From positions 1 through 64,000 of the forward strand of contig CAWJBB010000055.1 of the NCBI GenBank assembly GCA_963840855.1: 64,000 nt of DNA, in the 5' to 3' direction. Position numbers and translations under genes: made by a program. Shown here one piece after another: positions 2,090 to 54,626 of the stretch. The stretch is from an uncultured delta proteobacterium. Lineage in GTDB: Bacteria; Desulfobacterota; Binatia; UBA9968. How positions within the stretch are numbered: position 1 is the first letter of the stretch; every line of letters begins with the position of its first letter. Under the pieces are notes generated by a model that did no database searches, was not told the origin of the DNA, and saw nothing but the letters and a program-made list of their open reading frames with translations.

Positions 2090-2824
2090 ATGGCCAGCAA
2101 GCGGGCAGTCGTTCTTCTGAGCGGCGGCATCGACTCCGCCACCGCCGCCGCGATGGCGCGCCAACAAGGCTTTGAGATTCATGCCCTTAGCTTTCGATAC
2201 GGGCAGAGACATGAATGCGAACTCGCGGCGGCGCAAAAGGTCGCGGCCTTTCTCGGCGCCGCTTCACACCGCGTCATGGAGTTCGATATGCGCGTCATCG
2301 GCGGTTCGGCACTTACCGACCGGATGGATGTTCCCAAAGGACGGAGCTCGGACGAAATCGCCCATGGCATCCCCATAACCTACGTGCCGGCGCGCAATAC
2401 TATATTTCTCTCCTTCGGTCTGGCCCTGGCGGAACGCATCGAGGCGGAGGATATTTTTTTCGGCGCCAACCAGTTAGACTACAGCGGCTATCCCGACTGC
2501 CGCGAAGAGTATATGCAAGCCTTTGAACGGATGGCGAATTTCGCGACCCGGGCCGGCGTCGAGGGCCGCAGCCGCATCAAAATAAACGTTCCTTTGATTC
2601 ACATGACCAAAGCCGAGATCGTCCAACAAGGACTGGCGCTGGGCCTCGATTACGCGCTCACCTGGAGTTGTTACGATCCGGCCCCGGATGGCCGCGCCTG
2701 CGGGCTCTGCGACAGTTGCCAGTTGAGATTAAAAGGCTTCAAGTGGCGGCGGGCATTCCGATCCGATTGCCTATGCCATATAAAGTATTGGCTGTTCAAA
2801 TTCGACGTTCCTGAGGTCTTCTAA
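2090..2824 (+). CDS. queC: 7-cyano-7-deazaguanine synthase QueC (3' frameshift; natural end probably DPIAYAI* at 2783)
   Basis: [47 protein letters not shown]. Confidence 0.93.
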
Positions 2825-4796
2825 AGTTACCACTCGCTTGATGCGCTTTTCCGAGTCTACGATGGGGATTACCTGCAAATTGTGCCTGGTAAAAAGGTCT
2901 CTCAGTGCTTTTTGATCCAAATGCTCCGGCGCTGTGATCACGTCGGTGCGCATAACGTCCTGGACGGTTTTGTCGCCGGGAGTTATCAACAAATCCCTGA
3001 AAGTGACTGTCCCCAGCAGTTGCTCTTCAGAATTGGTAACGTAGGCGTAATAAAGAGTTTGACCCCGATCACGCGCATCTCTGCGTAGAAAACTTATAGC
3101 CTCGTCTACGCTCATATCAGGTCGCAAACGGACGTAGCGCGGATTTACTAGCCCTCGAGAATTTTCCTCGGCATAATCCATAAGCCCTTTGACTTCCCTG
3201 CGGGTCTTGTCATCGAGCAACGATAAAAGTCCAGCGCGTTCTTGTTCGGGGGCTTCCTGGATGACGTCCAGTGCTTCGTCAGGGGCGAGGAGCCGGATCC
3301 ACAATCTCCGTTCTCCGATCGGCAGAACTAGAATCAACTGCGCCTTATCCCTGGCACTCAGGTGCAGAAAAAAATTCTCCGCGTCATCCTGCTGGAGCAA
3401 CAAAAAGCCGTCGGCTCGCTCCCGCACAGAGAGGACAGGCCAGGCCTCGTACAGGTCGGCCAGCGCCAAGCTCTTCTCAGTCGCCTTGTCAACACCACTC
3501 TCCAAGTACATTTCCCCGGCGATGTCGTCGTACGCGAACAGCTCGGCATGGCGTCCCCAACTGATTGCGATATCTAGCTGCTTTTCGGCCTTGTCACCAA
3601 AATCAGCTTGCAGCTTGTCGTGAAAATAATCCCAAGCGACCCGCCGGTTGTCGTCCTGTTGGAGAGTTTCGTAGATCCAGGCAATGATCGGCAAGCGCAG
3701 GACCCGCCCCGCGATGATTGCTTTGCGGCCCAGAATGGTGGCGTCAGCGTAGGCGCGCCCAAGCGGCGTGAGTAACAGATCGCCCTCGTGAACCGTAATG
3801 AAACCCAGTCAGGTCCCCCGACTCCACAATGGGTAGGAGGTCATCGAGTTCGAGGACCAAATCACCGCTTATCCGGTAGAGGTCGACCCGTCCTCCCTCC
3901 TCTACGAGTTTCTCGAGCAAGCCGGCGAGGGCGCCGAGCTGTGCATTCGGTAACGCTCGGGTTACACCAGGCTGTCCAGGTTGAGTGCCAAGCGTTTCTT
4001 CTTTGGGCTTGGATTGACCGGCAACGGCTGCATACACTTTATCTACAAGGCCCTGGAAAGCGGTATCTTTGCGTTGCCGCGGCTGGCGAAGTCTGACGGG
4101 AATCTCCGTTACGATGTGACCAGGGTCTTTGCCCATGATCACGATGCGATCGGCCATCAACACGGCTTCCTCAATATTATGCGTAACCATCAGGATAGCC
4201 TTTGTAGGGATTTTCTTCTTGAGCCATAGTTCCATCAGCTCGCCCCGCAAAGCCTCGGCGGAAAGCACATCCAGGGCTGAAAATGGTTCGTCTAAACACA
4301 ACAATTCCGGTTCGACGGCCATGGCGCGGGCGAAACCAACTTTCTGTCGCATGCCGCCGGAAAGTTCGCGCGGGTAGGCTGACTCAAATCCATCCAAACC
4401 GACGATATCTATGAGTTTCAAGGCGCGTTCCCGGCGCTCAGCGGGCGCTACGCCGCGCGCTTTCAAGGCAATTTCCACGTTCTCTTGCACCGTCAGCCAG
4501 GGGTAAAGCGCAAATGTTTGAAAAACAATCGTCGTGTAGGGATTGACGCCTTTTAATGGCTGGCCATGATATGAAACCACGCCAGAAGTAGCGGCGTTTA
4601 ATCCCGCGATGATCCGCAGTAGCGTCGATTTCCCGCATCCGGATGGCCCGAGCAAGCAGACAAATTCACCCGGCTTGATATGGAGATCTATGTCTTTGAC
4701 GGCGAGAAATTCCTTGGTTTCCAGCCGGTAGGCTTTGGTGACACTTTGAAGGTCCAACAAATCGTCGGCGTCGTGGAGTGTTGTTGCAGTAATCAT
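2771..4796 (-). CDS. NitT/TauT-like ABC ATPase with AAA-associated C domain fused to MgtE N-domain + CBS pair (1-nt frameshift ~3809)
   Basis: [24 protein letters not shown]; removing one A gives [22 protein letters not shown]...[13 protein letters not shown]; then [16 protein letters not shown]...[15 protein letters not shown]...[22 protein letters not shown] (MgtE-like). Confidence 0.8.
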
Positions 4797-4815
4797 GGGA
4801 TACCTCCGATGCAGA

Positions 4816-6543
4816 TCATTCCATGCGGTAACGTTCTTCAGCCAATCTATAGAGACGACGCCAGAATGTTCGGTTAATAAAAACAACCGTGATGACCAAG
4901 GCCAATGTCGCTGCCAGCAAGAGCGCATAATCGCCGGTGCCGGTTGCCTGCGCAATCAGCGCGCCGACTCCACTCGTGGCGTGGGTTTGGCCGCCGAATT
5001 CGACATGTTCCGCCACAATGCTGGCATTCCAGGCGCCGCCGCTGGCTGTGATGGCTCCGGTGATGATGTATGGAAAGAGCGCGGGCAGGATCAAAGTCCG
5101 CCAGCGGTCGAGTGATGAAAGGCGGAGCAGATCCGTGGTGTAGAGTAGGTCTTGGGGAATGGCCGCCGCTCCGGCAATGACGTTGAACAGGAGATACCAC
5201 TGCGTTCCCATCAGCATAAGGAGCACAGCGGCGATGTTTAAACCGCCCGGCGACTGCAACAGCGCCAGCAACACCACGGGAAAAAGCGCCGTAGCCGGAA
5301 TAGATGCAACAACTTGCACGATTGGCTGAAGAAGTCCGGCGAGACGCCGGTTGGTTCCGATAAACACGCCGACCGGAATGGTCCAGATCAAGGTTATTGC
5401 CAGTGCAACGCTCACCCGGAGGAAAGTGGCGACGATCCCTTTTCCCAATTCCGCCCATGCCGAACCGGGGAGGGTAACCAACAGGGTTGCTGCTCGATAC
5501 CCTCCGTATAAAGCCAGCAAGCAAGAAAACACTTAGGATTCCCATCGCCAAGCGAGAATGTCCCGCTTCGGCGAACGGTTCAGGTGAAGTAATGAATCCG
5601 CTCGTGCGCCGTTGAAACCCTCTGTCTACCCATTCACTAAAGGGTCGCCATATGTAGGTGCCAAATTGCTCTATGAGCCAAGCGCGTGAAATCAGATCAA
5701 GAAACCACGACCTCGGCGGTTCATCGCCTTCGACCATGTCCACTTTGAATCGATCGGTCCATGCAATAAGAGGGCGCCAGACGAATTGGTCGAGCAAAAC
5801 GATCACCAAGACCAGGGTGATCACGCCCAGAAGAACAGCGTGCAGATTCCCCTCGTTAGCGGCGGTTTGTAAATACGAGCCGAGTCCCGGCAAGCGAAAA
5901 TCACGACTCCCGACGTTGAAAATTTCAGCGGCCATAAGGAAAAACCAACCCCCCGACCAACTCATCATGCTGTTCCATAGCAATCCGATGGCGGCGAAAG
6001 GGAGTTCAACTGCTTTGAATCGTAACCAGGGATCGAAGCGAAACACGGCGGCGGCTTCACGCATTTCGCTCGGAATCGTGGTCATGGATTGATAAAAACT
6101 AAAGGTCATATTCCAGGCTTGAGATGTGAAAATAAGGACGATAGCCGCAAGTTCGGCCGCAAATACTTGGGGCAGGACGGCACTAAAGCTAAGCAGGACC
6201 ACCGGCAAGAAAGAGAGAATGGGCACACTTTGTAGCACGTCCAGCACGGGCATGAGCACCGTTCGCGCAGTGCGGTTGCGCGCGGCCGCGTAACCATAGA
6301 ATAAGCTGAACAGCATGGACAGAAAATATGCAGCCGCCATCCGTCCGACGGAGAGCAGAGCATACCAAGGCAACGCAAGAGGCGAGAGAGATATATCCGG
6401 CCCTGCGATAACTGCAGGAACCCGGATGGCTAGACGTATGCCCGCGTAAAGTATGGTGGCGATGCCCAATACTCAGGATCGCATCGCCAAGAGTGAACGT
6501 CAGGGCGTTCAGGAAGAGCCGGACTAAAACGGAATGGCCGCAT
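4816..6543 (-). CDS. ABC transporter permease with two fused BPD_transp_1 domains (frameshifts ~5530, ~6470, ~6500)
   Basis: LDVLQSVPILSFLP, FTSQAWNMTFSFYQS, WNSMMSWSGGWFFL, ASIPATALFP, GTQWYLLFNVIAG, ASGGAWNASIVAE; ORFs 4874..6469 and 4816..5532 join across an indel. Confidence 0.82.
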
Positions 6544-6618
6544 GATCGACCCCAGGCTCAAGGACCGTCCCGTACTCCGGAATGACAGCCAAGCCCGAGA
6601 GGGGTGCGGCGTCAGGTA

Positions 6619-6669
6619 TTAAACGGGACGATAGTTGCTACGTAAATGTGGATTATCGGACGAATCCAT
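6619..6669 (-). CDS. Putative leader peptide MDSSDNPHLRSNYRPV
   Basis: ATG 6669 to TAA 6619, just downstream of a sigma70-like promoter; its last codons overlap one arm of an 8-bp inverted repeat (6623-6630 / 6566-6573). Confidence 0.5.
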   Translation of the reverse strand: MDSSDNPHLRSNYRPV

Positions 6670-6682
6670 ATATTCTCGTAAA

Positions 6683-6711
6683 ACAATAAGCCCACGTGAA
6701 CTGCGAGTCAA
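6683..6711 (-). promoter_or_regulatory. sigma70-like promoter of the ABC operon
   Basis: Minus strand TTGACT-17 nt-TATTGT. Confidence 0.55.
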
Positions 6712-7127
6712 GGCAAATTTAACGACTTGCGTGGTTGCAGACATACAACAAGTAAGTCCGGATAATTTGGCTAAGCAATGTGATTCAGAAAACGTTTTCT
6801 ACGTCGTCAAATACTTTGCGGGCAGGCAATCATATTGGTCAACAGAACGGTAACAGGAAAAGCGATTTTCTACGACCTGCAAAAACGAGTCCGCCAGGGC
6901 GACTGCACCGATCAGCATGAAACTCAAGTTCGGTCTAATCCCGGTGGCGATAGTGTTCGCACCGCGACCGCGGCGACCGCAATGTTCGCCACTTGGCCGC
7001 AAGCATCATGCGCCTTTGACTTTACCCTTTGGTAGTTTCTCTCTTTGAGCCTATACTATGTCTTCGTTATTGTAGATATAATGGCAACGGGACGAGATAA
7101 CATCTCCGGATAAATGAGATTCATTGC

Positions 7128-8021
7128 ATGTTGCCCGAACCGTTTACTCCAGCTTTCTTGAGCCAGCTCGAGACCCTCCGGTTGCGCACGCGCAAGGAAT
7201 TTCTCGGCGGCCACTCCGGCAGCTATGGGTCGCCGCGGCGCGGCACCAGTTTGGAATTCGCCGACTACCGCCGCTATGCTCCCGGCGATGACCTGCGTTA
7301 CCTGGACTGGGGCATCTATGCCCGCAGCGACCGGCTTTACGTCAAATTGTTTCGCGAGGAAGTAGACCTTTTTGCGTACGTCTTCATCGATGCCAGCGCC
7401 TCTATGGCGTTCCCTTCGGTGCGGGAAAAATTCTTGCCGGCGAGCCATATCGCCGCGGCGCTCTCCTATGTCGTGCTGGCCAACCACGATCATGTGAAGA
7501 TTCATCTCTTGGGCGAGCCATCGGCCAGCATCTCCTCGCCGTTCTATCGCGGCCGGCGCCGGATGGTGGACTGCGTGCAATTTACCGCGGCAACGACACC
7601 TTCCGGTCGGATGGATATGGCGGCATCGCTGGCGCATCATTTGCAGAAACTGCGCCGGCCCGGAAAAGCAATTCTAATTTCCGATTTTTTGATCCCGGCG
7701 GCATCTTACCAACAGGGATTGAATCTCCTGCGCGCTTTTAATCTCGATATCGCCGTCATTCAGGTGCTCACCCGCCTGGAAGTGGAGCCACCCTTTGCCA
7801 GCGGTGGGGTAAATCTCATCGACAGCGAAACCAACGCCGAGATCAAATTCCAATGGGACGATCGCGCGCGTCAGCACTACCAGGCGAAGCTGGCGCAGCA
7901 TAATTCAGAAATTCGCAGCTTCTGCCACCAGAGCGGCATTCATTACTCGCTTTATGTCACCGACCGCGATTTCAGCGGTTTCATCTTCGCGACGCTACCG
8001 GCCATCGGGCTCTTCAAATAA
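7128..8021 (+). CDS. DUF58 domain protein (MoxR-associated vWA-like)
   Basis: GTSLEFADYRRYAPGDDLRYLDW, IDASASM, ILISDF. Confidence 0.92.
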   Translation: MLPEPFTPAFLSQLETLRLRTRKEFLGGHSGSYGSPRRGTSLEFADYRRYAPGDDLRYLDWGIYARSDRLYVKLFREEVDLFAYVFIDASASMAFPSVREKFLPASHIAAALSYVVLANHDHVKIHLLGEPSASISSPFYRGRRRMVDCVQFTAATTPSGRMDMAASLAHHLQKLRRPGKAILISDFLIPAASYQQGLNLLRAFNLDIAVIQVLTRLEVEPPFASGGVNLIDSETNAEIKFQWDDRARQHYQAKLAQHNSEIRSFCHQSGIHYSLYVTDRDFSGFIFATLPAIGLFK

Positions 8022-9838
8022 TGGAATTCCTCAATCCCATCGCGCTCTATGGGCTTTTCACCCTGCCGCTATTGCTGATCCCGTATCTATTGCGGCGCAA
8101 GCCGCGGCGCTATGTTTTTTCCAGTTTGCTGATTTTCGCGGCGATGGGTGCCGACCCCACTGTCCGCCCTTGGGGACGACTGCGATTGCCGCTGATATTT
8201 TTCCTTCAACTGCTGCTCCTCGCTCTGATGATCATCGCCCTGGGAGAGCCGGTCTTCACCGCGCGTCCGAGCAGGGTCGCCATCGTCATGGACAACTCGG
8301 CCAGCATGCAGGCCCTGGAAGATGGCAAGCCGCGCTTTGTCCTGGCACGGGAAAAGGCAGCGGATATCTTCGCCGAATTGGGCTCCGGCGCGGTGTTGGA
8401 CCTCTATCTCACCGCGCCGCGGTTGGAGCGCTTCGGTGGCGTGAGCTTCTCTCCGTCCGAAGCCGCCCGCGCGCTCCATGGTCTAAAGCCCGTCGATCTT
8501 GGCGAAGCGCCGTTGGATTACAACAACGCCCTCGGCCAACTGGCGCGGGAACAAAAGTATGACCGCGTCTATCTCATCACCGACCGGCCGGCGCGCGGTC
8601 ACAGCGGGGCGGCCCGCGTTGTGACGGTCGGACGACCGCGGGCCAATTTCGCGATTACTTCCTTTGGCGTGCATCATGGTTCGCTCGCGGACGCGCGCTT
8701 GAACGCAAGCGCCGAAATAGCCAACTTTTCATCCAGCGACGCGCGCTTAAAAATAACCCTCAGGGGCGGCGGCGCGCCGCTTGCCACGCGAGATCTGGCC
8801 ATCGCCGCCGGCGGCTATGCCAGCGCCAGCTTCGAGGGACTGCCGCTCCATGCCTATTTTGAAGCGGAAATCGATTCGCGCGACGCCTTGGACCTCGATA
8901 ACCGGAGCTTTGCCGTAGCCTCCACCACGAAAATGCTGCGTATCCTGGGAATATCGCCGCGGCCACAGGAACTTAACAGCCTGCGCGCCATCACCGGCGT
9001 CGACCTGGACATCGTCGCGCCCGCCGATTACGAGAAAAGCGACCGCTCTCGTTACGGCTTGGAGATTTTTCATTTCGCGGCGCCCGCCGTTCTACCGCGC
9101 AACTCGGCATTGTTCATTCTCCCGCCGAACCAAAGCGAGTTGGTGGATCTACGGGAATGGGCCACCAACCTGTCGGTGTCAGGATGGCGCGAAGGCCATC
9201 CGCTAACGCGTTACGTGAATTTCGCGCTCTTTCGGCCCCGTTACGCCCGCCCGCTCAAACCAAAATTGCCTGGAGAAAATATCGTTCTAAGCGCGGAAGG
9301 ATCTCTGGTTTTCGCGACGATGAAACATGGCCTCCGTTATCTGGTTCTAGGCTTCGATCCCTTTCCCTTCCTGGGGCAAGAGAATCTCCCCATGTCTATA
9401 TTTACCGTGAACATGATCGACTGGTTTTTCGCTTTTTCCGGCGCGCGCGGCAAAGCCACGGGCCAACCGATCCCGGTGAGCGCCGCCCAGTCCGGCGACC
9501 AAATCATCACGCCGGCCGGCGAGAGGTTTCCCCTTCGCCCCGGCGCCACTGCCTTCCAGGCGACCCGATATCAAGGTATCTATCAATTGATGCGCCAGAG
9601 TGAGAAGAGCCTCATCGCCGTGAATCTGCGCGATGTCAATGAATCAGACCTACGCCGGCCGGCCCCCATCGAACTCGGCGGCGAAAGCGATGCCAGGAGC
9701 AGCGAATCCACCCTAATGCCGTTCTGGCCCTATTTCTTGTTGGCCGCCTTGCTATTACTCACGTTGGAATGGTTCATCAAGCCGCGCATGGCGCGCTCCA
9801 GCCGGCGCTTTGAACTCCGGCGCAGGCATGCCGTCTGA
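8021..9838 (+). CDS. BatA N-terminal + vWA domain membrane protein
   Basis: MEFLNPIAL...PLLLIPYLL; MIDAS DNSASM; LITD; C-terminal ESDL...LEW TM segment. Confidence 0.85.
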   Translation: MEFLNPIALYGLFTLPLLLIPYLLRRKPRRYVFSSLLIFAAMGADPTVRPWGRLRLPLIFFLQLLLLALMIIALGEPVFTARPSRVAIVMDNSASMQALEDGKPRFVLAREKAADIFAELGSGAVLDLYLTAPRLERFGGVSFSPSEAARALHGLKPVDLGEAPLDYNNALGQLAREQKYDRVYLITDRPARGHSGAARVVTVGRPRANFAITSFGVHHGSLADARLNASAEIANFSSSDARLKITLRGGGAPLATRDLAIAAGGYASASFEGLPLHAYFEAEIDSRDALDLDNRSFAVASTTKMLRILGISPRPQELNSLRAITGVDLDIVAPADYEKSDRSRYGLEIFHFAAPAVLPRNSALFILPPNQSELVDLREWATNLSVSGWREGHPLTRYVNFALFRPRYARPLKPKLPGENIVLSAEGSLVFATMKHGLRYLVLGFDPFPFLGQENLPMSIFTVNMIDWFFAFSGARGKATGQPIPVSAAQSGDQIITPAGERFPLRPGATAFQATRYQGIYQLMRQSEKSLIAVNLRDVNESDLRRPAPIELGGESDARSSESTLMPFWPYFLLAALLLLTLEWFIKPRMARSSRRFELRRRHAV

Positions 9839-9849
9839 AACAGTAGCCA

Positions 9850-12416
9850 ATGTCCGCTTACATTCCTGACATTCAGTTCATCCAGTTCGTCCAGTTTGGC
9901 AGGCCGGAGTTTTTCTGGCTCCTCGCCGCGCTGCCGGTTCTATGGTTACGTTTTCACGACCGGCGGCTGCTGGTCACGCTCGCACATACGCTGATCGCCA
10001 CGCTGCTGATCTTCGCCTTGGCTGATCCGCAGACGGTCACTAAGCAAACCGTGCACGAGGAGCGGCTCTTTGCCTTCGATCTCTCGCGCAGTATCGCGCC
10101 GAGCATGCGCCGCTGGATGGATCGGTACGCGCAAGGCGAGCTGGCGCCGGGCGCTAACGACCGCGTCTTTTTGTTTGGCGCCGCAGCCGTACAAACAAGC
10201 AACTGGCGCGAAGCATTGGGTAGCGGCAGCGAGAATATCTCCGGCATTGACCCCCAGAAGACCAACCTGGAAAAATTGCTAACGACATTATTGGCTTTGC
10301 CGCCCCGGCCTCGGAGTCTTTTTTTGTTTACAGACGGTTGGGAAACCGAAGGCAGCGTCGAAAGACTGTTACCACTCATTGCCGGGTCGGGGCTGAAGAT
10401 TTTCCCGATTGTGCCGGCCGAGCCGCCAAAGATTGCCAACGTCGCCGTGACCAAGCTCCAGGCTCCGAGCCACGGCAATAGCGCCGAATTGATTAATCTT
10501 AAAGTCGCGCTGGAGAACTACAGCGACCGTGACGTCGACGGGAGCCTGGCCATTGAGCGCAACGGCCGACAATTTAAAATCGACCGGATAAAACTCAAAC
10601 CGGGTAGCCATCTCTTCACTTATCCAGCCACACTGCCGGAAGATGCCGTGGCGTCTTACCGAGCAACCTTCACCCCAAGCCGATCGGAGCTCGACAACTA
10701 CGCGCCGGATAATCACGCGGTCGCTTCAGTGACGGTCAGAACCAAGGCCAAAGTGCTGCTCTTGAACGGCCGCGGTGGCGCTGGGCGTTACCTGGAGGAG
10801 GTCCTCAAACGCCAGGGATTCGACATCACCTCGCGCACGGCGGAGTCGGCGCCGCCGCCGGCGGGATTCGGCGTGGTCGTTTTCAATAACGTAGAGCGGG
10901 ACAGGTTCCCACCGGGCTATCTCGCGGCCGTGGAAAAGCATGTGGGGGCGGGCCATGGCTTCGTGATGCTCGGCAACGAAGCGAGCTTTTCGCCGGGCGC
11001 TTACCGCGGAACTCCCATCGACAGCCTTCTTCCGGTGGAACCCAAAGAACCGCCGAAGCGCGAGGAAAAGAACCGGGCCGTCGTTCTAGTCATCGATAAA
11101 TCGGGGAGCATGCGCGAGGACAATCGTATCCTCTACGCCCAGGAGGCCGCCAAGGCGGTGGCGCGCCAGCTTAATGACAACGATTTCATCGGCGTCGTCG
11201 GATTCGACATCAGCCCCTTTGTCATCATCCCCTTGTCCCAGGTCAGCAGCGTGCGCAGGGGGTTTGACGCGGAAATCGCGCGGCTCAGACCCGGCGGCCG
11301 GACTTATCTATTACCGGCTATCAACGAGGCAAAGCGGCAACTCCAACGCCAGGATGCCGCCCGCAAGCATGTCATTATACTGAGCGACGGTGAAACCGGC
11401 GGCAGCGGCGGTGACTACATCGACCTCGTGCATGTCATGCGCACCGAGCTTAAAATTACCGTCTCCGCCGTGGCCGTCGGGGCGGAAGCTAACCTGCCTT
11501 TGATGAAACGCATCACCCAATACGGCGGCGGCTTTTTTCATCATACCTTTGATCCCGCCTCGCTACCGCGCATCGTCCTGCAACAGATCCAGGAGACACC
11601 CCAAAATGAGACTCCAAAAGAACGGGAACTAATTCCCGTGCAGGAGCGGCGGTCAGAAATTCTCGGCAGCGTTACTCAGCGCGCCTTTCCGCGGGTGATT
11701 GGATATATGGAGACGGAGCTCAAGCGCGGCGCTGTTTTAGACCTCGCCATTCTGAAGGATGACGGCCGCCCACCGCTACTCGCCTCCTGGCGCTATGGCC
11801 GTGGCAAGAGTGTCGCCTTAACCATGGACATGGAAAGCCGTTATAGCCGCAACTGGATTCCGTGGAGCGGGCTGCAAGGCTTCTGGGACAATGTTCTCGG
11901 CTGGCTGCGGCCTGAAGTGGAGCCCATTCCGCTCCATGAAGCGCGCGTCAGTCTGATAAACATGCGCCCGCTTCTCGATCTTTACCTTTACGAGGAGGCA
12001 AGCGCCAACAGCCAGTTCAGCTTTTCGATTGCCGGCAAGAACGGCAAAACGGCATGCTCAAGAAACTCGCGCCCGGTCATTTTCAAACCGATCTACCGAT
12101 CAGCAAGCCGGGGGATTACAAGATCGAACTGTGGGAGTTGCGGCGCGAGCGCCGAATCGCGTTCCCCGCCGTGAGCTATTCCCTGCCCTATGACCTCAAC
12201 GGTGAACTTCCCCGGCCCGGATTCAACACGGCCCTGTTGGCCGAGCTGGCCCAGGCGTCGGGTGGGGAGATCAATCCGCGACCGCGCGATATTGCGCAAG
12301 AACCAGCGGTTACGAACCGTTTAGAGCCTAAACGCTATCCGCTAATTGCCCTGGCCTTCCTTCTTTTCCTAATTGAGGTGGCTTTGCGAAAGTTTGTCCT
12401 CTCTGAAGCCGATTAG
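9850..12416 (+). CDS. vWA domain protein with glutamine-amidotransferase-like domain (frameshift ~12050)
   Basis: DLSRS and DKSGSM MIDAS motifs, LFTDG, ILSDG, PLLASWRYGRGK; 12054..12416 supplies the C-terminal LAQASGG + TM. Confidence 0.8.
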
Positions 12417-23356: not shown

Positions 23357-23384
23357 CAGAGTATTTCCATTGATGGAGGAAACC

Positions 23385-24575
23385 ATGAAATGCGCCCCTG
23401 ACGTTAACCGGCGGCGGTTTTTGACTCAATCCTGCCTGCTCGCCGCTAGCGTTCTGTTGCCTGAGTCCAGCGCCTTCGCACAAGCGCAAAGGCTGCGCGT
23501 CGGCCTGATGCTGCCGTACACCGGCACCTATGCCCAACTCGGCACCGCCATCACCAACGGCTTCAAGCTCGTGGTGAGCGAGCGCGGCGGTAAACTCGGC
23601 GGCCGCGAACTCGAATACTTTACCGTGGACGATGAATCCGACCCGGCAAAAGCGCCGGAGAATACCAACAAGCTGGTGCAGCGCGATAAAGTCCATGTGC
23701 TGGTCGGCTCAGTGCACAGCGGCGTGCAGATGGGCATGGTCAAGATCGCCAAAGAAACCAATACGCTTATGATCATTCCCAACGCGGGGCTGGACGCCGC
23801 CACCGGCGCCCTGTGCGCGCCGAATATTTTCCGCTCGTCTTTTTCCAACTGGCAGCCTTCCTATCCGATGGGCAAAGTGCTTGCCGACCGCGGCATCCGC
23901 AACGTTGTGTCCCTCGCCTGGAAGTATGGCGCCGGCGAAGAAGCAGTGGCTGGTTTCACCGAGGGATTTATCAAGGCCGGCGGTAAAACCGTGCGCGGCT
24001 TGTGGATACCGTTTCCGAACGTGGAATTCCAGGCGCTGCTTACCGAGATCGCTTCGATCAAGCCCGACGCCGTGTTCGTCTTTTTCGCCGGCGGCGGCGC
24101 TGCGAAGTTTATCAAGGATTACGCCGCGGCAGGGTTGCGCAAAACCATTCCACTGTTCGGCTCGGGATTTCTTACCGACGGCGTGCTCGATGCGGTCGAT
24201 AACGCCGCTGAAGGGCTCGAAACCACGCTGCATTACGCCGACGGGCTCGACAACAAACGGAATAAGGAGTTCCGCGCCGCATACATGAAAGCTTACAAGA
24301 TCGAGCCTGACGTCTACGCCGTGCAGGGCTACGACGCGGCGCTGCTCCTTGCCACTGGCCTCGACGCCGTCAAAGGCGACGTCGGCAGGCGCAACGAAAT
24401 GATCGGCGCTATGGAGAAAGCCAGGGTCGATAGTCCGCGCGGCACCTGGACGATGTCGAAAGCACACAACCCCATTCAGGATATCTATTTGCGCAAAGTC
24501 GTCGGCCGCGAAAACAAGTTCGTCGGCATCGCCCACAAGGCCCTCGCCGATCCGGCGCGGGGATGTAAAATGTAA
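23385..24575 (+). CDS. Liv-type ABC substrate-binding protein (aromatic acid/benzoate), Tat signal
   Basis: NRRRFL; GLMLPYTGTYA, VDDESDP, VHSGV, NIFRSSFSNWQ. Confidence 0.9.
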   Translation: MKCAPDVNRRRFLTQSCLLAASVLLPESSAFAQAQRLRVGLMLPYTGTYAQLGTAITNGFKLVVSERGGKLGGRELEYFTVDDESDPAKAPENTNKLVQRDKVHVLVGSVHSGVQMGMVKIAKETNTLMIIPNAGLDAATGALCAPNIFRSSFSNWQPSYPMGKVLADRGIRNVVSLAWKYGAGEEAVAGFTEGFIKAGGKTVRGLWIPFPNVEFQALLTEIASIKPDAVFVFFAGGGAAKFIKDYAAAGLRKTIPLFGSGFLTDGVLDAVDNAAEGLETTLHYADGLDNKRNKEFRAAYMKAYKIEPDVYAVQGYDAALLLATGLDAVKGDVGRRNEMIGAMEKARVDSPRGTWTMSKAHNPIQDIYLRKVVGRENKFVGIAHKALADPARGCKM

Positions 24576-24585
24576 GACAGGTCGT

Positions 24586-25040
24586 TCACCACGAAGGCGC
24601 GAAGAACACGAAGGAAAAGCGGTAGGGTGTGAAATTCGACGAATTGTCGAATCGAGTTATTGGCTGCGCAATCGAAGTTCACCGGCAGCTCGGGCCGGGA
24701 TTGTTAGAATCGGCCTACGAGCAGTGCCTGAGCTATGAACTCAATCAATCTCACCTACCGTTTCAAACGCAATGCGCGTTACCGGTGAAATACAAACAAA
24801 TTGAGTTGGACTGCGCTTATCGTATCGACATGCTTGTCGATAATCAGCTGATTGTAGAGCTAAAAAGCGTGGATCAATTGTTGAAGATTCATGAGGCCCA
24901 AGTTTTAACGTATATGAAGTTGGCGAAAGTAAATGTCGGACTCCTGATTAACTTTAACGTCGATCTTCTCAGGAAAGGCATCAAGAGATTAGTTCTTTGA
25001 TTCGAAATAACCCTTCGTGTCCTTCGTGCCTTCGTGGTGA
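24586..25040. mobile_element. Putative GxxExxY element bounded by 29-bp inverted repeats
   Basis: TCACCACGAAGGCGCGAAGAACACGAAGG (24586-24614) vs reverse complement of 25012-25040, 27/29 identical; lies between SBP and permease genes. Confidence 0.65.
24629..25000 (+). CDS. GxxExxY protein (PD-(D/E)XK nuclease-like)
   Basis: LGPGLLESAYE, YRIDMLVD, IVELKSV, HEAQVLTY, GLLINFN. Confidence 0.93.
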   Translation: MKFDELSNRVIGCAIEVHRQLGPGLLESAYEQCLSYELNQSHLPFQTQCALPVKYKQIELDCAYRIDMLVDNQLIVELKSVDQLLKIHEAQVLTYMKLAKVNVGLLINFNVDLLRKGIKRLVL

Positions 25041-25050
25041 GGCATTCATC

Positions 25051-25908
25051 ATGGTGCTTCTTATACAACTTTTGAACGCCGTACAGTATGGTTTATTGTT
25101 ATTTCTGCTGGCGAGCGGCTTGACCCTGATCTTCGGCATCATGGGCGTGATCAATCTCGCCCACGGCAGTTTCTATATGGTCGGCGCCTACCTCGCCTAC
25201 TGGCTCGCCAGGCACACCGGCAGCCTCTGGCTGGCGATTCCATTTGCAGTCGTCATCGCCTTCGGCATAGGTCTCCTGTTGGAGACGGCGATCTTCAGCC
25301 GCTTATACAAGCGCGACCATCTCTATCAAGTGTTGCTCACCTTCGGCCTGATCCTGGTCTTCGAAGAACTGCGTAGCATTCTATTCGGCGATGAAGTCCA
25401 TGGCGTGGCGATTCCGGCGCTGCTCACCTCTTCGATCCCACTCACTGACACCCTGTCGTATCCGGTTTACCGGCTCTTCGTCACCGCGGTGTGCCTGGCG
25501 ATCGCGGCCCTGCTGTATTTCGTGATCCACAAAACCCGCGTTGGCATGATGATCCGGGCCGGCAACAGCAACCGCGAGATGGCCGCTTCGCTCGGCGTGA
25601 ATATTCCCCTGCTGTTCGCCTTGGTCTTCGCATTCGGCATGGCCCTCGCCGCCTTCGCCGGCGCCGTCGCCGCGCCGATCTCGTCGGTATTTCCCGGCAT
25701 GGGAAACCAAATCTTGATCATCTGCTTCGTTGTCGTCGTGATCGGTGGCATAGGCTCGATCAACGGCGCCATGATCGCCTCCCTCGCCATCGGCCTCGCC
25801 GACACTCTCGGCAAGGTAGTCGCGGCGGAATACTCCAGCGTCGCGGTTTACCTGGTCATGGCGGCAATTCTCTTGTGGCGCCCACAAGGCATCGCCAACA
25901 AGGCGTAA
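25051..25908 (+). CDS. Branched-chain/aromatic ABC permease (LivH-like)
   Basis: GLTLIFGIMGVINLAHG, GMMIRAG, VVVVIGGIGS. Confidence 0.92.
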   Translation: MVLLIQLLNAVQYGLLLFLLASGLTLIFGIMGVINLAHGSFYMVGAYLAYWLARHTGSLWLAIPFAVVIAFGIGLLLETAIFSRLYKRDHLYQVLLTFGLILVFEELRSILFGDEVHGVAIPALLTSSIPLTDTLSYPVYRLFVTAVCLAIAALLYFVIHKTRVGMMIRAGNSNREMAASLGVNIPLLFALVFAFGMALAAFAGAVAAPISSVFPGMGNQILIICFVVVVIGGIGSINGAMIASLAIGLADTLGKVVAAEYSSVAVYLVMAAILLWRPQGIANKA

Positions 25909-25911
25909 CCG

Positions 25912-26919
25912 GTGAGCCCCATCATCTTGCCGCGTTCGCTATTGATCGCCGCCGTGCTGCTGCTCGCCCTGTTTCCCGTGTTTGGCGCGACTTTCTATAT
26001 ACAACTTGGCGCCAAGATCATGATCATGGCGATCTTCGCCCTGAGTCTCGACCTGTTGGTCGGCCACACCGGGCTGGTTAGCTTGGGACACGCCGCTTAC
26101 TTCGGCCTCGCCGCTTACGCGTTAGCGATAATCTCGCCCAGGTATGAAGCGGCCAATCTGTGGCTTACCCTGCCCGCGGCCATGGCTGGCGCCGCGCTGG
26201 CCGCCCTCGTCATCGGATTTCTCGTCGTCCGCACCGCCGGCATTTACTTCATCATGGTCACCTTGGCTTTCGCGCAGATGCTTTATTCCTTGTTTCATGA
26301 CACGAAACTCGGCGGCGGCTCCGACGGCATCTATATTCAGGTGCGCCCGGAATTGACTCTATGGGGTTTCAAGCCTCTCGATCTGGAAAACCCCGCGCAA
26401 TTTTATTACTTCGTGCTGATCATGCTGATCGCGGTCTATATATTTCTCAATCACGTGCTGCACGCGCCTTTGGGCCGCGCGCTGGCCGGTATCAGGGCCA
26501 ATGAACAGCGTATGCGTTCCATCGGTTTTCCGGTCTTCGCTTACAAGCTCGGCGCGTTCGTGCTCGCGGGCGCGCTGGCGGGGCTCGCCGGTTATCTCGC
26601 CGCTTGTCAGTTTGGCTTCGTCAATCCGGACATCATGGCCTGGCACCAGTCCGGCATCGTGCTCATGATGGTGATTCTCGGCGGTATGGGCCGGCTGCAT
26701 GGCCCGGTGCTCGGCGCCTTCGCTTACGTGCTTATTCAAGAACTTCTTTCCGCGCCAGCGTTGCTTGGCCCTTACGCCAAGCATTGGCAACTCGCCATGG
26801 GCGGTTTGATTGTTACGATCGTGCTGGTTTTACCGCATGGCATCGGCGGCTTCATTGACATCGCTTTGCGGCGTTACTCCTACCGCCGCGTCCAAACGAA
26901 CGGCGCCGCCGAATCATGA
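25912..26919 (+). CDS. Branched-chain/aromatic ABC permease (LivM-like)
   Basis: GHTGLVSLGHAAYFG, YFIMVTLAFAQ, GIRANEQR. Confidence 0.92.
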   Translation: MSPIILPRSLLIAAVLLLALFPVFGATFYIQLGAKIMIMAIFALSLDLLVGHTGLVSLGHAAYFGLAAYALAIISPRYEAANLWLTLPAAMAGAALAALVIGFLVVRTAGIYFIMVTLAFAQMLYSLFHDTKLGGGSDGIYIQVRPELTLWGFKPLDLENPAQFYYFVLIMLIAVYIFLNHVLHAPLGRALAGIRANEQRMRSIGFPVFAYKLGAFVLAGALAGLAGYLAACQFGFVNPDIMAWHQSGIVLMMVILGGMGRLHGPVLGAFAYVLIQELLSAPALLGPYAKHWQLAMGGLIVTIVLVLPHGIGGFIDIALRRYSYRRVQTNGAAES

Positions 26920-27674
26920 GCGACGCCCTCCTCCAAGCGCGCGGGTTGAGCAAGAGTTTCGGCGGACTTGCCGCCGTGGATAATTTGTCCCTCGAAGTCA
27001 GAGTGGGCGAACTACACGCGGTCATCGGCCCCAACGGCGCGGGCAAAACGACGCTGATCAACCTGCTTTCCGGTGAGCTGCCCGCCAGCTCCGGAGACAT
27101 CATCTTTGGCGGTAACCCTATTTCCCGGCTGGCGCCCGAGAAACGCGCGCGCTTGGGCATGGGTCGAAGTTATCAGAAGACGAATATTTTTCTTGGCTTC
27201 AGCGCGTTGGAAAATTGCCGGCTGGCGGCCCAATCGCGCGAGCCGCGGCCATTGAATTGGCTGCGTAACGCGCTCTCCTACGAAAGTGTCATGGCTCAGG
27301 CGCGGCGCGCCCTCGATGCCGTGGGCTTGGCGCACCGGGCGAGCGACGCAGCGCTGGCGCTCAGTCACGGCGAGCAGCGCCAGTTGGAAATCGCCATGTG
27401 CCTCGCCACCGAACCGCGCTTGTTACTGCTCGACGAACCGCTCGCCGGCATGGGCATGGAGGAATCATTGAAGATGGTGGAACTCATCCGCCGTCTCGGT
27501 GAAAGTCACGCCATCCTGCTGGTCGAGCACGACATGGATGCGGTCTTTCAGTTAGCCAAAGTGCTGACCGTAATGGTCGATGGCAAAAAACTTGCCTCCG
27601 GCGCCCCCGAGGAAATTCGCGCCAACCGAAACGTCCAGGTTGCATACCTCGGCAGCGATAACGAGTTGCGATGA
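26916..27674 (+). CDS. ABC ATPase (LivG-like)
   Basis: GPNGAGKTT, LSHGEQRQLE, LLLDEP, VEHDM. Confidence 0.93.
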   Translation: MSDALLQARGLSKSFGGLAAVDNLSLEVRVGELHAVIGPNGAGKTTLINLLSGELPASSGDIIFGGNPISRLAPEKRARLGMGRSYQKTNIFLGFSALENCRLAAQSREPRPLNWLRNALSYESVMAQARRALDAVGLAHRASDAALALSHGEQRQLEIAMCLATEPRLLLLDEPLAGMGMEESLKMVELIRRLGESHAILLVEHDMDAVFQLAKVLTVMVDGKKLASGAPEEIRANRNVQVAYLGSDNELR

Positions 27675-28387
27675 CCGACGAGCCGATCATCGAAGCGCGC
27701 GAGCTGCACACTTACTATGGCGCCAGCCATATTTTGCACGGCGTCGATTTCACCGTGCGCGCCGGCGAAGCCGTGGGGTTGATGGGGCGAAACGGCATGG
27801 GCAAGACGACGCTCATTCGATCGTTAATCGGCCATGTTCCATCACGCCGCGGTGAAATTAAGATCAACGGCCGGGTGATGACCCACGCCGCGCCGCATCA
27901 GATCGCGCGCCAAGGCATCGCCTACGTTCCCGAAGGCCGCGGCATTTTTCCCAATCTCACGGTAAAAGAAAACCTCGTCATGGCCGCCCGGCCAGGCGCT
28001 CACGGCAAACACGACTGGACCCTCGCACGCGTGCTGCAAACTTTTCCACGGCTGGCCGAGCGGCTGACCCATGGCGGCCAGCAACTTTCCGGCGGCGAGC
28101 AGCAGATGCTGTCGATTGGCCGTGCGCTGATGACCAATCCAACATTGTTGATACTCGACGAAGCCACGGAAGGTCTCGCGCCCATCATCGCCCAAGAAAT
28201 CTGGCGCATGGTCCGCACGATTCGCGAATCCGGCATCGCCGCGATCATCGTCGACAAAAACTTCGCCGCCGTCTCGGCGCACACCGACCGAAACGTCATT
28301 CTGGTCAAAGGCCGCATCGTGTTCGAAGGCACCGGCGATCAATTAAAAGCCCAACCGGAGTTGCTACGCCAGCATTTGGGGATCTGA
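27671..28387 (+). CDS. ABC ATPase (LivF-like)
   Basis: GRNGMGKTT, YVPEGR, LSGGEQQML, LDEATEGLAP. Confidence 0.93.
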   Translation: MTDEPIIEARELHTYYGASHILHGVDFTVRAGEAVGLMGRNGMGKTTLIRSLIGHVPSRRGEIKINGRVMTHAAPHQIARQGIAYVPEGRGIFPNLTVKENLVMAARPGAHGKHDWTLARVLQTFPRLAERLTHGGQQLSGGEQQMLSIGRALMTNPTLLILDEATEGLAPIIAQEIWRMVRTIRESGIAAIIVDKNFAAVSAHTDRNVILVKGRIVFEGTGDQLKAQPELLRQHLGI

Positions 28388-40115: not shown

Positions 40116-41138
40116 ATGCTCTGCCAACTGTGTAAGGCGATTTGTCTTTCATTACTTCTGCTCGGCACAACGTTCGTGCCGCTCAACTCAGCCCAGGGGC
40201 AGTCCGAGGACGAACTGGCGCGCGGGGCAAAGAAAGAAGGGAAAGTGGTTTTCTGGAGCTCCATGCGCATTGAGGATTCGCGGGCGTTGGCGGCGGGCTT
40301 CGAGGCAAGATATCCGTTCATCAAAGTCGACATCTTTCGCGCCGGCGGCGAACAGATCGTCAACCGCGCCCTCGCGGAACATCTGGCGGGCAAAACGACC
40401 TACGATGTGCTCAACGCCTTCGCCCTCAAGGTAGTGCAAAACAAAGGGCTCTTGCAGGCCTATGCCGCGCCGGAAGCAACGTATTATCCTACCGGGTTTA
40501 AAGATCCGCAGAATTATTGGGTGTCGCTTTACAGCGGCTACAACGTGATCGGCTACAACACCAAGCTGGTAACCAAAGCCGATGCGCCGAGAAATTGGGA
40601 CGATCTTTTGCACCCGCGCTGGAAAGGTAAACTCGGCATGGATGATGAAGAATATTTTTGGCACGCGGGCATGCTCAAACACTGGGGCGAAGAAAAGGGC
40701 AGAAAGTACATGGAAGTGCTGAGCCGGCAAGGGCTTCAGTTCCGTAATGGCCACGCGTTGCTCGCGGACTTGATGTCGGTCGGCGAATTCCCCGCAGCCG
40801 TGGTTGTTTATCCGGACCACATCGAACAAATGAAAAACAAGGGCCAGCCGGTTGAGTGGATCAAGAGCACCGATCCGATTCTCGTCAACCTGGCGCCCGT
40901 CGCCGTTGCCGCCAAGGCGCCACAACCCAACGCCGCGAAGCTGTTCATGAACTACAGCATCTCGAAGGAAGGCCAGGAAATCCTGCAAAAAGCCCGGCGC
41001 GCCTCGGCGCGGCACGACGTTGCGCCTCTCGTCCCCGATATGGACCCCAGGAAGTTGAAGCTCGTGCCCCTGGACCCGGACATAGCGACCAACGCGGATC
41101 ATATAAAAGATTTTCGCCGAGTCTTCGGTTTAAATTGA
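40116..41138 (+). CDS. Extracellular solute-binding protein (Fe3+/polyamine-like cluster)
   Basis: Signal peptide; AKKEGKVV, YNTKLV, APRNWDDLLHPRWKGK, PNAAKLF. Confidence 0.85.
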   Translation: MLCQLCKAICLSLLLLGTTFVPLNSAQGQSEDELARGAKKEGKVVFWSSMRIEDSRALAAGFEARYPFIKVDIFRAGGEQIVNRALAEHLAGKTTYDVLNAFALKVVQNKGLLQAYAAPEATYYPTGFKDPQNYWVSLYSGYNVIGYNTKLVTKADAPRNWDDLLHPRWKGKLGMDDEEYFWHAGMLKHWGEEKGRKYMEVLSRQGLQFRNGHALLADLMSVGEFPAAVVVYPDHIEQMKNKGQPVEWIKSTDPILVNLAPVAVAAKAPQPNAAKLFMNYSISKEGQEILQKARRASARHDVAPLVPDMDPRKLKLVPLDPDIATNADHIKDFRRVFGLN

Positions 41139-42732: not shown

Positions 42733-42880
42733 CTCCCGCCAAGGCGCAAAGCACGCCAAGTTCGGAGGGAAGAGATGAATTATCTTGGAGAATTTTTCAC
42801 CGTTATTTTCCGACCTTCGCGACCTTTGCGCCTTTGCGCGAGATATTCCGGCTTTTGGTTGCGGCTATGTCGCGCTGTGC
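42733..42880. repeat. CGCAAAGGCGCAAAG-type inverted repeat pair overlapping the SBP start
   Basis: CTCCCGCCAAGGCGCAAAGCACGCCAAG (42733-60) vs CTTCGCGACCTTTGCGCCTTTGCGCGAG (42815-42). Confidence 0.75.
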
Positions 42881-51459: not shown

Positions 51460-51484
51460 TCAGGTTGTGAATGATTAGAAGGCG

Positions 51485-51564
51485 AGATTCCTCACTCCGT
51501 TCGGGATGACATCGCACGGAGAATAACAACACGAATATGGCATTCCGAGCAAAGCGAGGAATCT
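51485..51564. repeat. REP-like pair (AGATTCCTC..GGATGACA / GCATTCCGAGC..GAGGAATCT)
   Basis: Two inverted palindromic units; same family at ~35944-36146 and ~46110-46190. Confidence 0.75.
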
Positions 51565-51610
51565 CGACTTTCGCACAAAAATTAGCGCTGATTTGTAATC
51601 GGAGGTCGCC

Positions 51611-53899: not shown

Positions 53900-54626
53900 G
53901 AATTGCCTCACGCCTATTTCTGCTCATAGAGCTTCTTGATGAACCCGCTCTTGTCCAGCTCGGCGATTAACGTCGGGTCCATGAACTCTTCGGGCTTTTT
54001 ATTGCGGATCTCGGGTCTCGTCGCCGCGACATAGTCGTAAGTAGCCTCCAGTCCCTTCATGATCGGATAGGGCACGGAAATGAAATCCTGCCGGAAAATT
54101 TCGTATGAACCTTCCAAGAGTTCCTGATCGTTGGTTCTCAGATATTTGCTTAGCACTTTGATGCTGAAATCTTTGTGCGATTTGAGATACGCGATGCCTT
54201 CGACGTGAGATTTGAGCATGCGCATCACCGTATCGCGATCTTCTTGTACGGTCTTGCGCCTGGTCACCACCGACATCGAAGGATAGACCACCTCTTTCCT
54301 CGCGTCCCACAGTACCCGGTAACCCATTCGCTGCGCCTGAACATCAGTGGGATAGGACAGGTCCGCGGCATCCACCCGCCCCGATGCCAACGCCTGCAGC
54401 CGCTCCTGGGGTGTTCCGATGGAGAGCCAAATGACGTCCCGAATCGGGTCCATGCCGTTTTTACGAATGATGTACTTGAACAGAAAATCGCCCAGCGTGG
54501 CCGATTTCACGGAACGTACCCACCCAATTTCAACGAAGGGACCCACCCCATTTCAGGTGGTTTCCTTCGATTCTGAGCTAAGCGACGAACGATGCTACCT
54601 TGGCCAACTGGAGGAGGATCCAGTTG

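Follow-up and report, generated by a model that had tools for sequence, protein, structure and literature searches.

An ABC transporter ATPase fused to the cytosolic sensor of MgtE in Binatia, and its possible role in Mg2+ homeostasis

Why would the ATPase of an ATP-binding cassette (ABC) transporter carry the cytosolic sensor of the Mg2+ channel MgtE at its C-terminus? The question is raised by a two-gene operon on the minus strand (6543-2771) of contig CAWJBB010000055.1, from an uncultured delta proteobacterium (GCA_963840855.1; GTDB class Binatia), whose first 64,000 nucleotides, hereafter the window, were analysed. A permease gene is followed there by a gene for an ATPase-sensor fusion. 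A sequence-only reading had described the pair as a transporter with no gene for a substrate-binding protein (SBP), its ATPase ending in an MgtE-like N domain and two CBS domains, and had proposed a Mg2+-regulated, possibly Mg2+-transporting system.

The fusion gene (2771..4796, minus strand, about 675 codons) runs from the ATG at 4796 (MITATTLHD...) to the stop codon at 2771-2773, and an extra base at 3809 splits it into two open reading frames (ORFs), 3744..4955 and 2771..3694. Pfam searches placed ABC_tran in the first ORF (residues 86-225, E 2.3e-30), giving a nucleotide-binding core at 4281..4700 whose translation contains the Walker A motif, the signature LSGGMRQ and the Walker B motif. 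AAA_assoc_C (PF09821) follows at 3527..3899, cut by the frameshift at 3809 and with an approximate 5' limit. Its second half lies in the second ORF (residues 2-56, profile positions 64-119 of 119, E 3.9e-11), and its first half was read by comparison with the intact homologue P0002 and with a Tsukamurella ATPase, where the domain is complete. The second ORF then continues into the MgtE intracellular N domain (3164..3460; Pfam MgtE_N, residues 79-177, E 1.7e-14) and a CBS pair (2804..3154; Pfam CBS in two stretches, E 2.2e-15). The Pfam and NCBIfam results confirmed the proposed order of ABC_tran, AAA_assoc_C, MgtE_N and two CBS domains without an MgtE membrane domain, as well as the claim that the junction between AAA_assoc_C and MgtE_N lies within the single ORF 2771..3694 and does not depend on any frame correction.

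Searches of the PDB matched the C-terminal part, N domain and both CBS domains included, to Thermus thermophilus MgtE (2yvy, E 3.3e-28); the alignment spans native residues 30-251 and runs to residue 254 of 2yvy. The C-terminal ORF matched the NCBIfam mgtE model (TIGR00400) over positions 33-250 of 450, with 110.9 bits against a cut-off of 232.75, and this partial match below the cut-off indicated that only the cytosolic part of MgtE is present. The protein terminates about 10 residues past CBS2, where the plug helix of MgtE begins, so that the plug helix is missing; Pfam detected no match to the five-helix MgtE membrane domain (PF01769), which holds the pore aspartate (D432). The fusion protein is not an MgtE channel and carries the MgtE sensor only. 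No solved structure matching AAA_assoc_C was returned by the PDB search.

The partner gene (4816..6543, minus strand; ATG at 6543, stop codon at 4816-4818) encodes a duplicated ABC permease of the COG4986 type, with two transmembrane domains (TMDs) in one protein. It is read in four frame segments, with single extra bases at about 6500, 6473 and 5517, and a three-frame reading of 6380-6600 yields MRPFRFSPALPERP / FTLGDAILSIG / IATILYAG as its N-terminus. Pfam detected BPD_transp_1 in each permease half among the window ORFs, and the translation of the first half contains an EAA coupling loop (EMREAAAVFRF). The intact homologue at the related locus L001 is one ORF of at least 532 residues that aligns to the window permease in two frames; the permease gaps relative to L001 and to L003-L005 are visible in blastn. 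No SBP gene adjoins the operon in the window, and the proposed double-domain permease without an SBP gene is what the operon shows.

The fusion is not confined to this contig. A word-indexed search restricted to longer proteins gave 181 matches, and all architecture and residue counts reported here cover the best 120 of these 181. All 120 combine PF00005, PF09821, PF03448 and PF00571 in proteins of 553-679 residues that are 74-87% identical to the query; they come from Binatia, Zixibacteria and 'Deltaproteobacteria' metagenome-assembled genomes (MAGs), under generic database names such as 'NitT/TauT family ATP-binding protein' or 'AAA-associated domain-containing protein'. A scan of genome contigs returned six fused loci, all in MAGs of Binatia or 'delta proteobacterium', and four of the six (L001, L002, L004 and L005) have the gene order of the window. 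The survey of the architecture thus found that the fusion is not unique to this assembly, and an assembly chimera or a deletion scar, against which the sequence-only reading had warned, was rejected on the strength of these homologues and loci.

Several observations bear on where the sensor came from. In an exhaustive search of 1.84 billion 50%-identity representatives, the junction was spanned, among the best 150 matches, by one full-length representative (P0001) and six fragments of 98-164 residues; so few representatives across the junction indicate that the fused family is a single tight cluster. The next-best matches among these 150 were MgtE proteins, 44-64% identical, with PF01769 in 11 of the 33 that were scanned. 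The nearest, P0121 (64%), continues past CBS2 into the plug helix and TM1, and classic MgtE proteins are about 30% identical to the fused sensor. A quick maximum-likelihood search on the sensor (42 rows, midpoint root for drawing only) placed all 17 sampled fused proteins in one group (SH-aLRT 99) with P0121 as its sister, both inside a clade with membrane-bearing MgtE. The simplest history that these sequences suggest is one event in the Binatia lineage, in which the 5' part of a genuine mgtE gene, severed precisely where the plug helix begins, was joined to the 3' end of the ATPase gene.

In MgtE, Mg2+ bridges the N and CBS domains and thereby compacts the dimer, according to passages of PMC8104411 and PMC5882242. 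The parts of PMC5882242 and PMC5529423 that describe its cytosolic sites assign D91/D247 to Mg4, D226/D250 to Mg5, D95 to Mg6 and E59 to Mg7, place E258 and D259 of Mg2 and Mg3 on the plug helix, and build the ATP site from Y170, R187, D188, N203 and F227. These residues were mapped through the 2yvy alignment and counted in the 120 fused proteins. The position of D91 is acidic (D or E) in 119 of 120 and that of D95 likewise in 119 of 120; the positions of Y170, R187 and D188 are invariant (120/120).

Unfused relatives represent the parent family of the ATPase and its permease. A tblastn search of a plasmid collection with the intact L001 permease matched 72 records, 55 of them with one match covering at least 80% of that permease; these 55 are 31-45% identical and belong to Cyanobacteriota, Deinococcota, Actinomycetota, Bacillota and Alpha-, Beta- and Gammaproteobacteria. 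The two-gene unit was present in all 21 plasmid loci examined (L009-L029), and in the 19 that are annotated a permease of about 500-670 residues precedes the ATPase. No annotated SBP gene was found in the fetched flanks of any of these 19, for which the PLSDB gene tables are incomplete. Seven plasmid ATPases were scanned: five have 413-459 residues and AAA_assoc_C, and two have 244-259 residues and lack it. The ATPase P0002 is 50% identical to the Tsukamurella ATPase over 414 residues, AAA_assoc_C included, and 45% identical to an Enterococcus ATPase over the nucleotide-binding domain (NBD). Across 19 permease sequences, 18 plasmid-borne members included, 98 positions are invariant or differ in only one sequence. 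The conserved motifs are F-T-x-Q-x-W-N-M, W-N-x-M-x-S and W-F-F...A-x-E in the first half, and G-x-Q-W-Y-L-L-F-N and G-G-x-W-N-A-x-I-x-x-E in the second.

The window operon is accordingly a member of the orphan COG4986/PF09821 family to which a sensor has been added. The Liberibacter member is called a 'possible novel ABC system' in passages of PMC3688454, which note that it lacks an SBP, has its two TMDs in tandem and carries a PF09821 domain with a winged-helix prediction, and which question whether it transports at all. In Table 2 of PMC4837290, the permease homologue of Liberibacter crescens is listed as essential and the Las homologue as 7.24-fold higher in planta. On the small, mobilizable Nostoc sp. 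CENA543 plasmid pCENA543e (30.5 kb; L009), the ABC unit sits between relaxase and transposase genes, a context which suggests that the unit is self-sufficient and spreads by horizontal transfer. In Methylobacterium and Cupriavidus (L023 and L026), the ABC operon is closely preceded, in the same orientation, by a gene annotated 'carbohydrate porin', whose product may be the outer-membrane entry route for the substrate of the operon.

The sequence-only reading had named unfused homologues as the place to look for a link with Mg2+ genes, and the plasmid loci provided one. A Mg2+-specific marker was found in the same-strand cluster in 6 of the 21 unfused loci, and two more have Nramp-type neighbours. 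The markers are an M-box riboswitch in three loci, an mgtC leader in one and an adjacent mgtC gene in three, one of which also has the M-box (Rfam at gathering threshold; cut-offs of 44 for the M-box and 48 for the mgtC leader, RF02887). The M-boxes of L016, L017 and L018 are those of Enterococcus gilvus (132.5 bits, 57 nucleotides before the permease coding sequence), E. raffinosus (132.7 bits, immediately upstream of the permease) and Tsukamurella tyrosinosolvens (108.1 bits, upstream of an mgtC-permease-ATPase cluster). On Escherichia albertii plasmid p1RM10507 (L020, 3136-6384), a Salmonella-type mgtC leader RNA (RF02887, 65.7 bits) lies upstream of the operon; what it precedes is a 72-codon ORF and the duplicated-permease ABC operon, not mgtC. 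The mgtC gene is the next gene downstream in Cupriavidus taiwanensis and Aureimonas sp. AU20, and is adjacent on the same strand in Tsukamurella too. The ABC operon of Thermus thermophilus has an Nramp gene immediately upstream, and Nramp genes occur within 4 kb in 2 of the 21 loci. The Mycolicibacterium aubagnense plasmid (L013, 1-4257) carries an M-box (148 bits) followed by a small ORF, the gene of a PRC-barrel+MgtE_N+CBS protein that lacks a membrane domain, an Nramp gene and a second Nramp gene; this cluster lies 3.3 kb from the COG4986 ABC operon. The remaining 16 of the 21 loci gave no Rfam matches. The Mg2+-positive loci fall in four classes and differ in gene order, which makes a single inherited coincidence unlikely.

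Published observations extend this pattern. Excerpts of PMC5746004 report an expressed M-box in the 5' untranslated region of Bifidobacterium breve Bbr_0406-07, whose permease is COG4986. As set out in parts of PMC4072509, M-boxes lie almost always upstream of corA, mgtE or mgtA, a rule that led to the discovery of NrmT, and NrmT genes are usually accompanied by a gene for a stand-alone MgtE cytoplasmic domain.

Three independent kinds of evidence, the fused MgtE sensor, the riboswitches and leaders, and mgtC adjacency, thus point this orphan ABC family at Mg2+. We propose that it works in Mg2+ homeostasis as a Mg2+-gated, most likely ATP-driven Mg2+-importing ABC system without a dedicated binding protein, and give this proposal a probability of about 0.5. 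Its two parts differ in strength. The earlier proposal of a Mg2+-regulated ABC system is well supported, by inference from the spread of the fused sensor and from the links of the family to Mg2+ genes; that the system also transports Mg2+ is a hypothesis. In such a transporter, the two ATPase subunits would bring two sensor modules side by side beneath the NBD dimer, as they lie beneath the MgtE pore. At high cytosolic Mg2+, the ion would link the N domain to the CBS pair by way of conserved acidic residues, those that match Mg4 and Mg6; the bridged sensor pair would compact and hold the NBDs apart or inactive, a trans-inhibition of the kind found in MetNI and ModBC. Those importers are gated by a regulatory C-terminal pair, from which the analogy is taken. 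At low Mg2+ the sensor would relax and ATP-driven uptake would run. In other phyla the same logic would operate at the level of expression, through an M-box riboswitch or an mgtC-type leader. Fused loci fit such a swap of RNA-level for protein-level control, in the small number available: no M-box was found in the window or, with 0 Rfam matches, in L001, L003, L004 and L005, the leader of L001 lying off its contig.

A set of observations weighs against this proposal. The closest characterised relatives, NrtB/CmpB by structure and the nitrate, taurine and sulfonate models of NCBIfam, import anions with an SBP, and we know of no BPD_transp_1 importer that functions without an SBP or carries a bare cation. 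The ATPase requires MgATP, which complicates a simple inhibition by Mg2+. Within the sensor, the position of D226, a Mg5 ligand, is N in 117 of 120 proteins; that of D247 is D or E in 75 and absent in 40, where the C-terminus is shorter; and that of D250 is variable. At the position of E59, 65 proteins have D, 54 have N and one has E, and an invariant E adjoins it. At the ATP site, F227 is replaced by L in 120/120 and N203 by R in 101/120. The plug-helix residues of Mg2 and Mg3 are absent, and sites Mg1-Mg3 cannot exist in the fused sensor. These counts indicate that the N-domain side of the Mg2+ clamp is kept and its CBS side partly eroded, a pattern that appears compatible with Mg2+ sensing, without being proof of it. 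Among the unfused loci, 13 of 21 have no Mg2+-related neighbour, and the three under direct RNA control, from Enterococcus and E. albertii, have no AAA_assoc_C and are distant relatives, with permeases 31-33% identical. The window copy carries four frameshifts, and the related loci L003, L004 and L006 are damaged too. Lastly, passages of PMC4072509 report that the NrmT of Acidobacterium capsulatum, whose partner is an MgtE fragment, acted as a Mn2+ transporter, and an MgtE-like sensor is by that precedent no proof of Mg2+ specificity.

The damage raises the question of whether the window operon is functional, which is independent of what the family does. The extra base at 3809 that the sequence-only reading had removed is confirmed (window GACCTG-A-CTGGG; the base is missing in six of six related loci, and P0002 is continuous across the break), but its picture of a single frameshift was incomplete. 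The operon needs four single-base corrections, at 3809 in the ATPase gene and at about 5517, 6473 and 6500 in the permease gene, each an extra base relative to the homologues. If these insertions are real, the window copy is inactive. Decay into a pseudogene would account for four frameshifts in a 3.8 kb operon against about five detected in the other 60 kb, and for the damage in related loci. The operon of L003 (7276-10897) has deletions of 97 and 23 nucleotides; the L004 permease has a 1-nucleotide deletion at about 7905, with intact neighbour genes; and L006 retains only the 3' 1.5 kb of the ATPase gene (9364-10865), next to a rearranged Bat operon. Such varied damage hints at recurrent loss of the system in this lineage. 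On the other side, no in-frame stop codon occurs within any operon frame segment, and at 82% nucleotide identity the ATPase is 93% identical to that of L001 in its N-terminal part (332 residues) and 83% in its C-terminal part (343 residues). The cluster of frameshifts, six between 2745 and 6500, also continues into the unrelated convergent gene queC, which accounts for two of them. Further shifts were found in the VWA gene near 12045 (a 1-nucleotide deletion by an A-run), in an Abhydrolase_10 gene at about 53100 and in an IS21-type transposase gene at about 55600, and nanopore-type MAGs of the same lineage (L005 and L006) show like damage in neighbouring genes. Since other genes of the window are frameshifted too, sequencing or assembly error is the likelier cause, and we regard a decaying pseudogene as rather unlikely.

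Two further observations concern the frameshift sites. The pentamer TCAGG (CCTGA on the coding strand) is present at three of the four operon sites (3809, 6473 and 6500); it occurs 92 times in the 64 kb, frameshift sites elsewhere lack it, and the coincidence may reflect a systematic base-calling artefact or chance. Programmed frameshifting was considered and rejected, the homologues being continuous at all four sites and the frameshifts of L003, L004 and L005 lying at other positions. At the 3' end of queC (window 2740-2830, plus strand), the last 12 or so codons need two frame changes (KGFK / AAGI / DPIAYAI-stop), and the ORF as written extends 54 nucleotides into the ATPase gene.

With respect to function, an unlikely but serious alternative is that the system is switched by Mg2+ and carries another cargo needed under Mg2+ limitation, such as Mn2+, Fe2+, a polyamine or an anion, with Mg2+ acting as a signal only. 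Low-Mg2+ regulons include many genes other than those of Mg2+ transporters, and the homology to anion importers would be explained, as would neighbour genes of the Nramp, VIT and FetAB types, which usually handle Mn or Fe. The arrangement of mgtC beside an ATP-driven system in the mgtC-adjacent loci mirrors that of Salmonella mgtCB, where mgtC accompanies an ATP-driven pump, and speaks for Mg2+ itself as the cargo; nor was an annotated SBP of any specificity found with the operon in the 19 annotated loci. The excerpts of PMC4072509 cut both ways: the Mn2+-transporting NrmT favours another cargo, whereas the almost exclusive placement of M-boxes before Mg2+ transporters argues against one.

It is improbable that the fused module has ceased to sense Mg2+ and that its CBS pair reports adenine nucleotides, energy charge or ionic strength, as in OpuA-type importers; in that case, the Mg2+-linked gene contexts seen in distant relatives would say nothing about the Binatia fusion. 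Such a change of ligand would agree with Y170, R187 and D188 being invariant in all 120 proteins while several Mg2+ ligands have changed, and with weak matches to the ProV-type CBS model of NCBIfam. It does not explain why a complete N domain was retained, when in MgtE this domain serves Mg2+-dependent clamping, nor why the D91 and D95 positions stayed acidic in 119 of 120. The adenine-stacking F227 has become L and N203 has become R, and the module is still 44-64% identical to MgtE channels of the working type. That the family is no transporter at all and forms an ABC-driven signalling or mechanical device, perhaps acting through a winged-helix AAA_assoc_C, is most improbable: passages of PMC3688454 raised the doubt over the missing SBP together with an HHsearch winged-helix prediction, and no solved structure matches AAA_assoc_C, but importer-type BPD_transp_1 is kept in both membrane halves, the 98 near-invariant permease positions include the paired Q-x-W-N and G-G-x-W-N...E motifs, and riboswitch control is typical of transporters or biosynthetic genes in the account excerpted from PMC4072509.

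A Mg2+-gated ABC importer would have consequences beyond this contig. We tentatively suggest, at somewhat less than even odds, that the COG4986 permeases and their NitT/TauT-like ATPases form a class of primary-active Mg2+ importers beside CorA, MgtE, MgtA/B, NrmT and CorB/C. This class would be placed under three interchangeable Mg2+ controls, the M-box, the mgtC-type leader and, in Binatia, the MgtE sensor, and would supply the missing pump partner of MgtC where MgtA/B are lacking. If true, it would be a new class of Mg2+ transporter and the first ABC system of the importer type shown to act on a metal ion with no binding protein; the essential ABC system of Liberibacter crescens, which has no assigned substrate, would be accounted for, and one regulatory task would have been solved at the RNA level in some phyla and through fusion of a protein domain in another. 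The fusion also provides a handle on how the MgtE sensor relays Mg2+ occupancy to a wholly different output domain, and the conserved polar motifs of the permease offer themselves for mutagenesis. Public databases already contain the fused proteins, under their generic names. Among open-access papers and preprints, none was found in which the fusion is described or the family credited with Mg2+ transport, and a search of the open-access literature for a characterised Mg2+ ABC transporter or a function of PF09821/COG4986 returned only PMC3688454, PMC4837290 and PMC5746004. On an ABC system for Mg2+, a single sentence in the B. breve paper was all that this literature yielded. ABC systems do not figure in reviews of Mg2+ transport, which cover channels, secondary carriers and P-type pumps; in one on Mg2+ transporters from 2022, neither 'ABC' nor 'ATP-binding cassette' occurs.

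The surroundings of the operon in the window are unrelated to Mg2+. Downstream of its 3' end lie convergent, unrelated housekeeping genes (SCO1, VKOR, rhodanese and queC), and on its 5' side a divergent DUF58/BatA/VWA operon. The intergenic region between the operon and the divergent DUF58/BatA genes (6544..7127) contains no detected riboswitch: Rfam gave 0 matches over the whole window at gathering threshold and 0 on 6400-7200 at E<=1, and hence no M-box (RF00380) in the leader. Scans for promoters and terminators upstream of the operon returned sites at chance level. No Mg2+ transporter gene, and no mgtC, was present among the window ORFs scanned, and mgtC was likewise absent from the fused loci examined.

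SBP genes do occur in the window, as orphans 34-57 kb from the operon without an adjacent permease or ATPase gene. Two are of the SBP_bac_6 type (40116-41138 and 62103-63221) and two are NMT1/SsuA-like (42775-43821 and 43911-44864), the latter beside UbiD-like and arylsulfotransferase genes. NMT1 is the SBP class of NitT/TauT importers, so a distant SBP for the operon is possible. In the fused loci L001, L004 and L005, no SBP gene lies next to the operon. An SBP_bac_6 gene lies 490 nucleotides upstream of the operon in L003 and is 40% identical to window 40116-41138; it was rejected as a partner, being a paralogue from a multi-copy orphan family and not conserved with the operon. A further NMT1-family SBP gene of the window is interrupted by an IS21-type element (53914-57627): its N-terminal part is at 57112-57627 and its C-terminal part at 53914-54546, both on the minus strand, and between them lie the IstA-like gene (54600-56145, frameshifted) and IstB (56305-57075). 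Two tandem Abhydrolase_10 paralogues occupy 49603-53640; a frameshift near 53100 divides the second between two successive ORFs, which match profile positions 142-326 and 329-428. A branched-chain-amino-acid-type ABC operon (23370-28387) encodes Peripla_BP_6, two BPD_transp_2 permeases and two ATPases, and a PD-(D/E)XK nuclease gene (24629-25000) is placed between its SBP gene and its first permease gene.

How does the system compare with those already known? With MgtE (T. thermophilus; 2yvy, 2yvx, 2zy9) it shares the N domain and CBS pair, the acidic residues of Mg4 and Mg6 and three of the five named ATP-site side chains, and in the sensor tree the fused module falls within a clade made up of genuine MgtE channels. 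Unlike MgtE, the fusion has no plug helix or membrane domain, its D226 equivalent is N and D247/D250 are partly lost, and its output is an ABC ATPase rather than a pore. The best-scoring characterised relatives of its ATPase and membrane domains are NrtBCD/CmpBCD and TauABC/SsuABC of the NitT/TauT group, at scores below the NCBIfam cut-offs: the ATPase reached 203.3 against 291.8 for ntrCD, 200.9 against 357 for TauB and 163.6 against 395 for SsuB, with similar values for the intact P0002, and the permease reached 112.6 against 209.05 for ntrB. Among solved structures, only NrtB and CmpB matched the permease (E 1e-14 to 1e-16). NitT/TauT systems use an SBP of the NMT1/NrtA type and single-domain permeases, whereas the window permease is duplicated and has no linked SBP gene.

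ABC importers gated by regulatory domains at the C-terminus of the ATPase are well known, among them OpuA/ProV with its CBS pair, MetNI with its C2 domain, ModBC and MalK. The fusion resembles them in placing a regulatory module after the NBD, in two copies under the NBD dimer, and the module of OpuA is likewise a CBS pair; the NCBIfam ProV model gives weak matches on the CBS part. It differs from OpuA-type importers in having the full MgtE N and CBS domains behind an additional AAA_assoc_C, and in its presumed ligand, Mg2+, instead of an organic solute, ionic strength or cyclic di-AMP. The mgtCBR-type operons of Salmonella offer a parallel in gene context, since 3 of the 21 unfused loci have mgtC next to an ATP-driven membrane system and, on E. 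albertii plasmids, the ABC operon follows an RNA that resembles the mgtC leader; the pump of mgtCBR, MgtB, is of the P type and not an ABC system, and mgtC is missing both from the window and from those fused loci that were examined.

Similar in plan is the orphan 'Nrt/Ssu/Tau-like' ABC system of Liberibacter (CLIBASIA_02415/02420), which has tandem TMDs in one protein, an ATPase with AAA_assoc_C and no SBP gene; the excerpted text of PMC3688454 proposes no Mg2+ link for it. The Liberibacter and plasmid ATPases end after AAA_assoc_C (413-459 residues), and that of the window adds about 240 residues of MgtE sensor. A last parallel is provided by NrmT and the stand-alone MgtE-cytoplasmic-domain proteins described in passages of PMC4072509, in which a pore-less MgtE sensor accompanies another class of transporter, in some cases with an M-box; the arrangement of M-box, PRC+MgtE_N+CBS protein and Nramp in the Mycolicibacterium locus is of the same type. 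There the sensor is a separate gene and the transporter a secondary one, whereas in the window the sensor is covalently fused to the ATPase of an ABC system.

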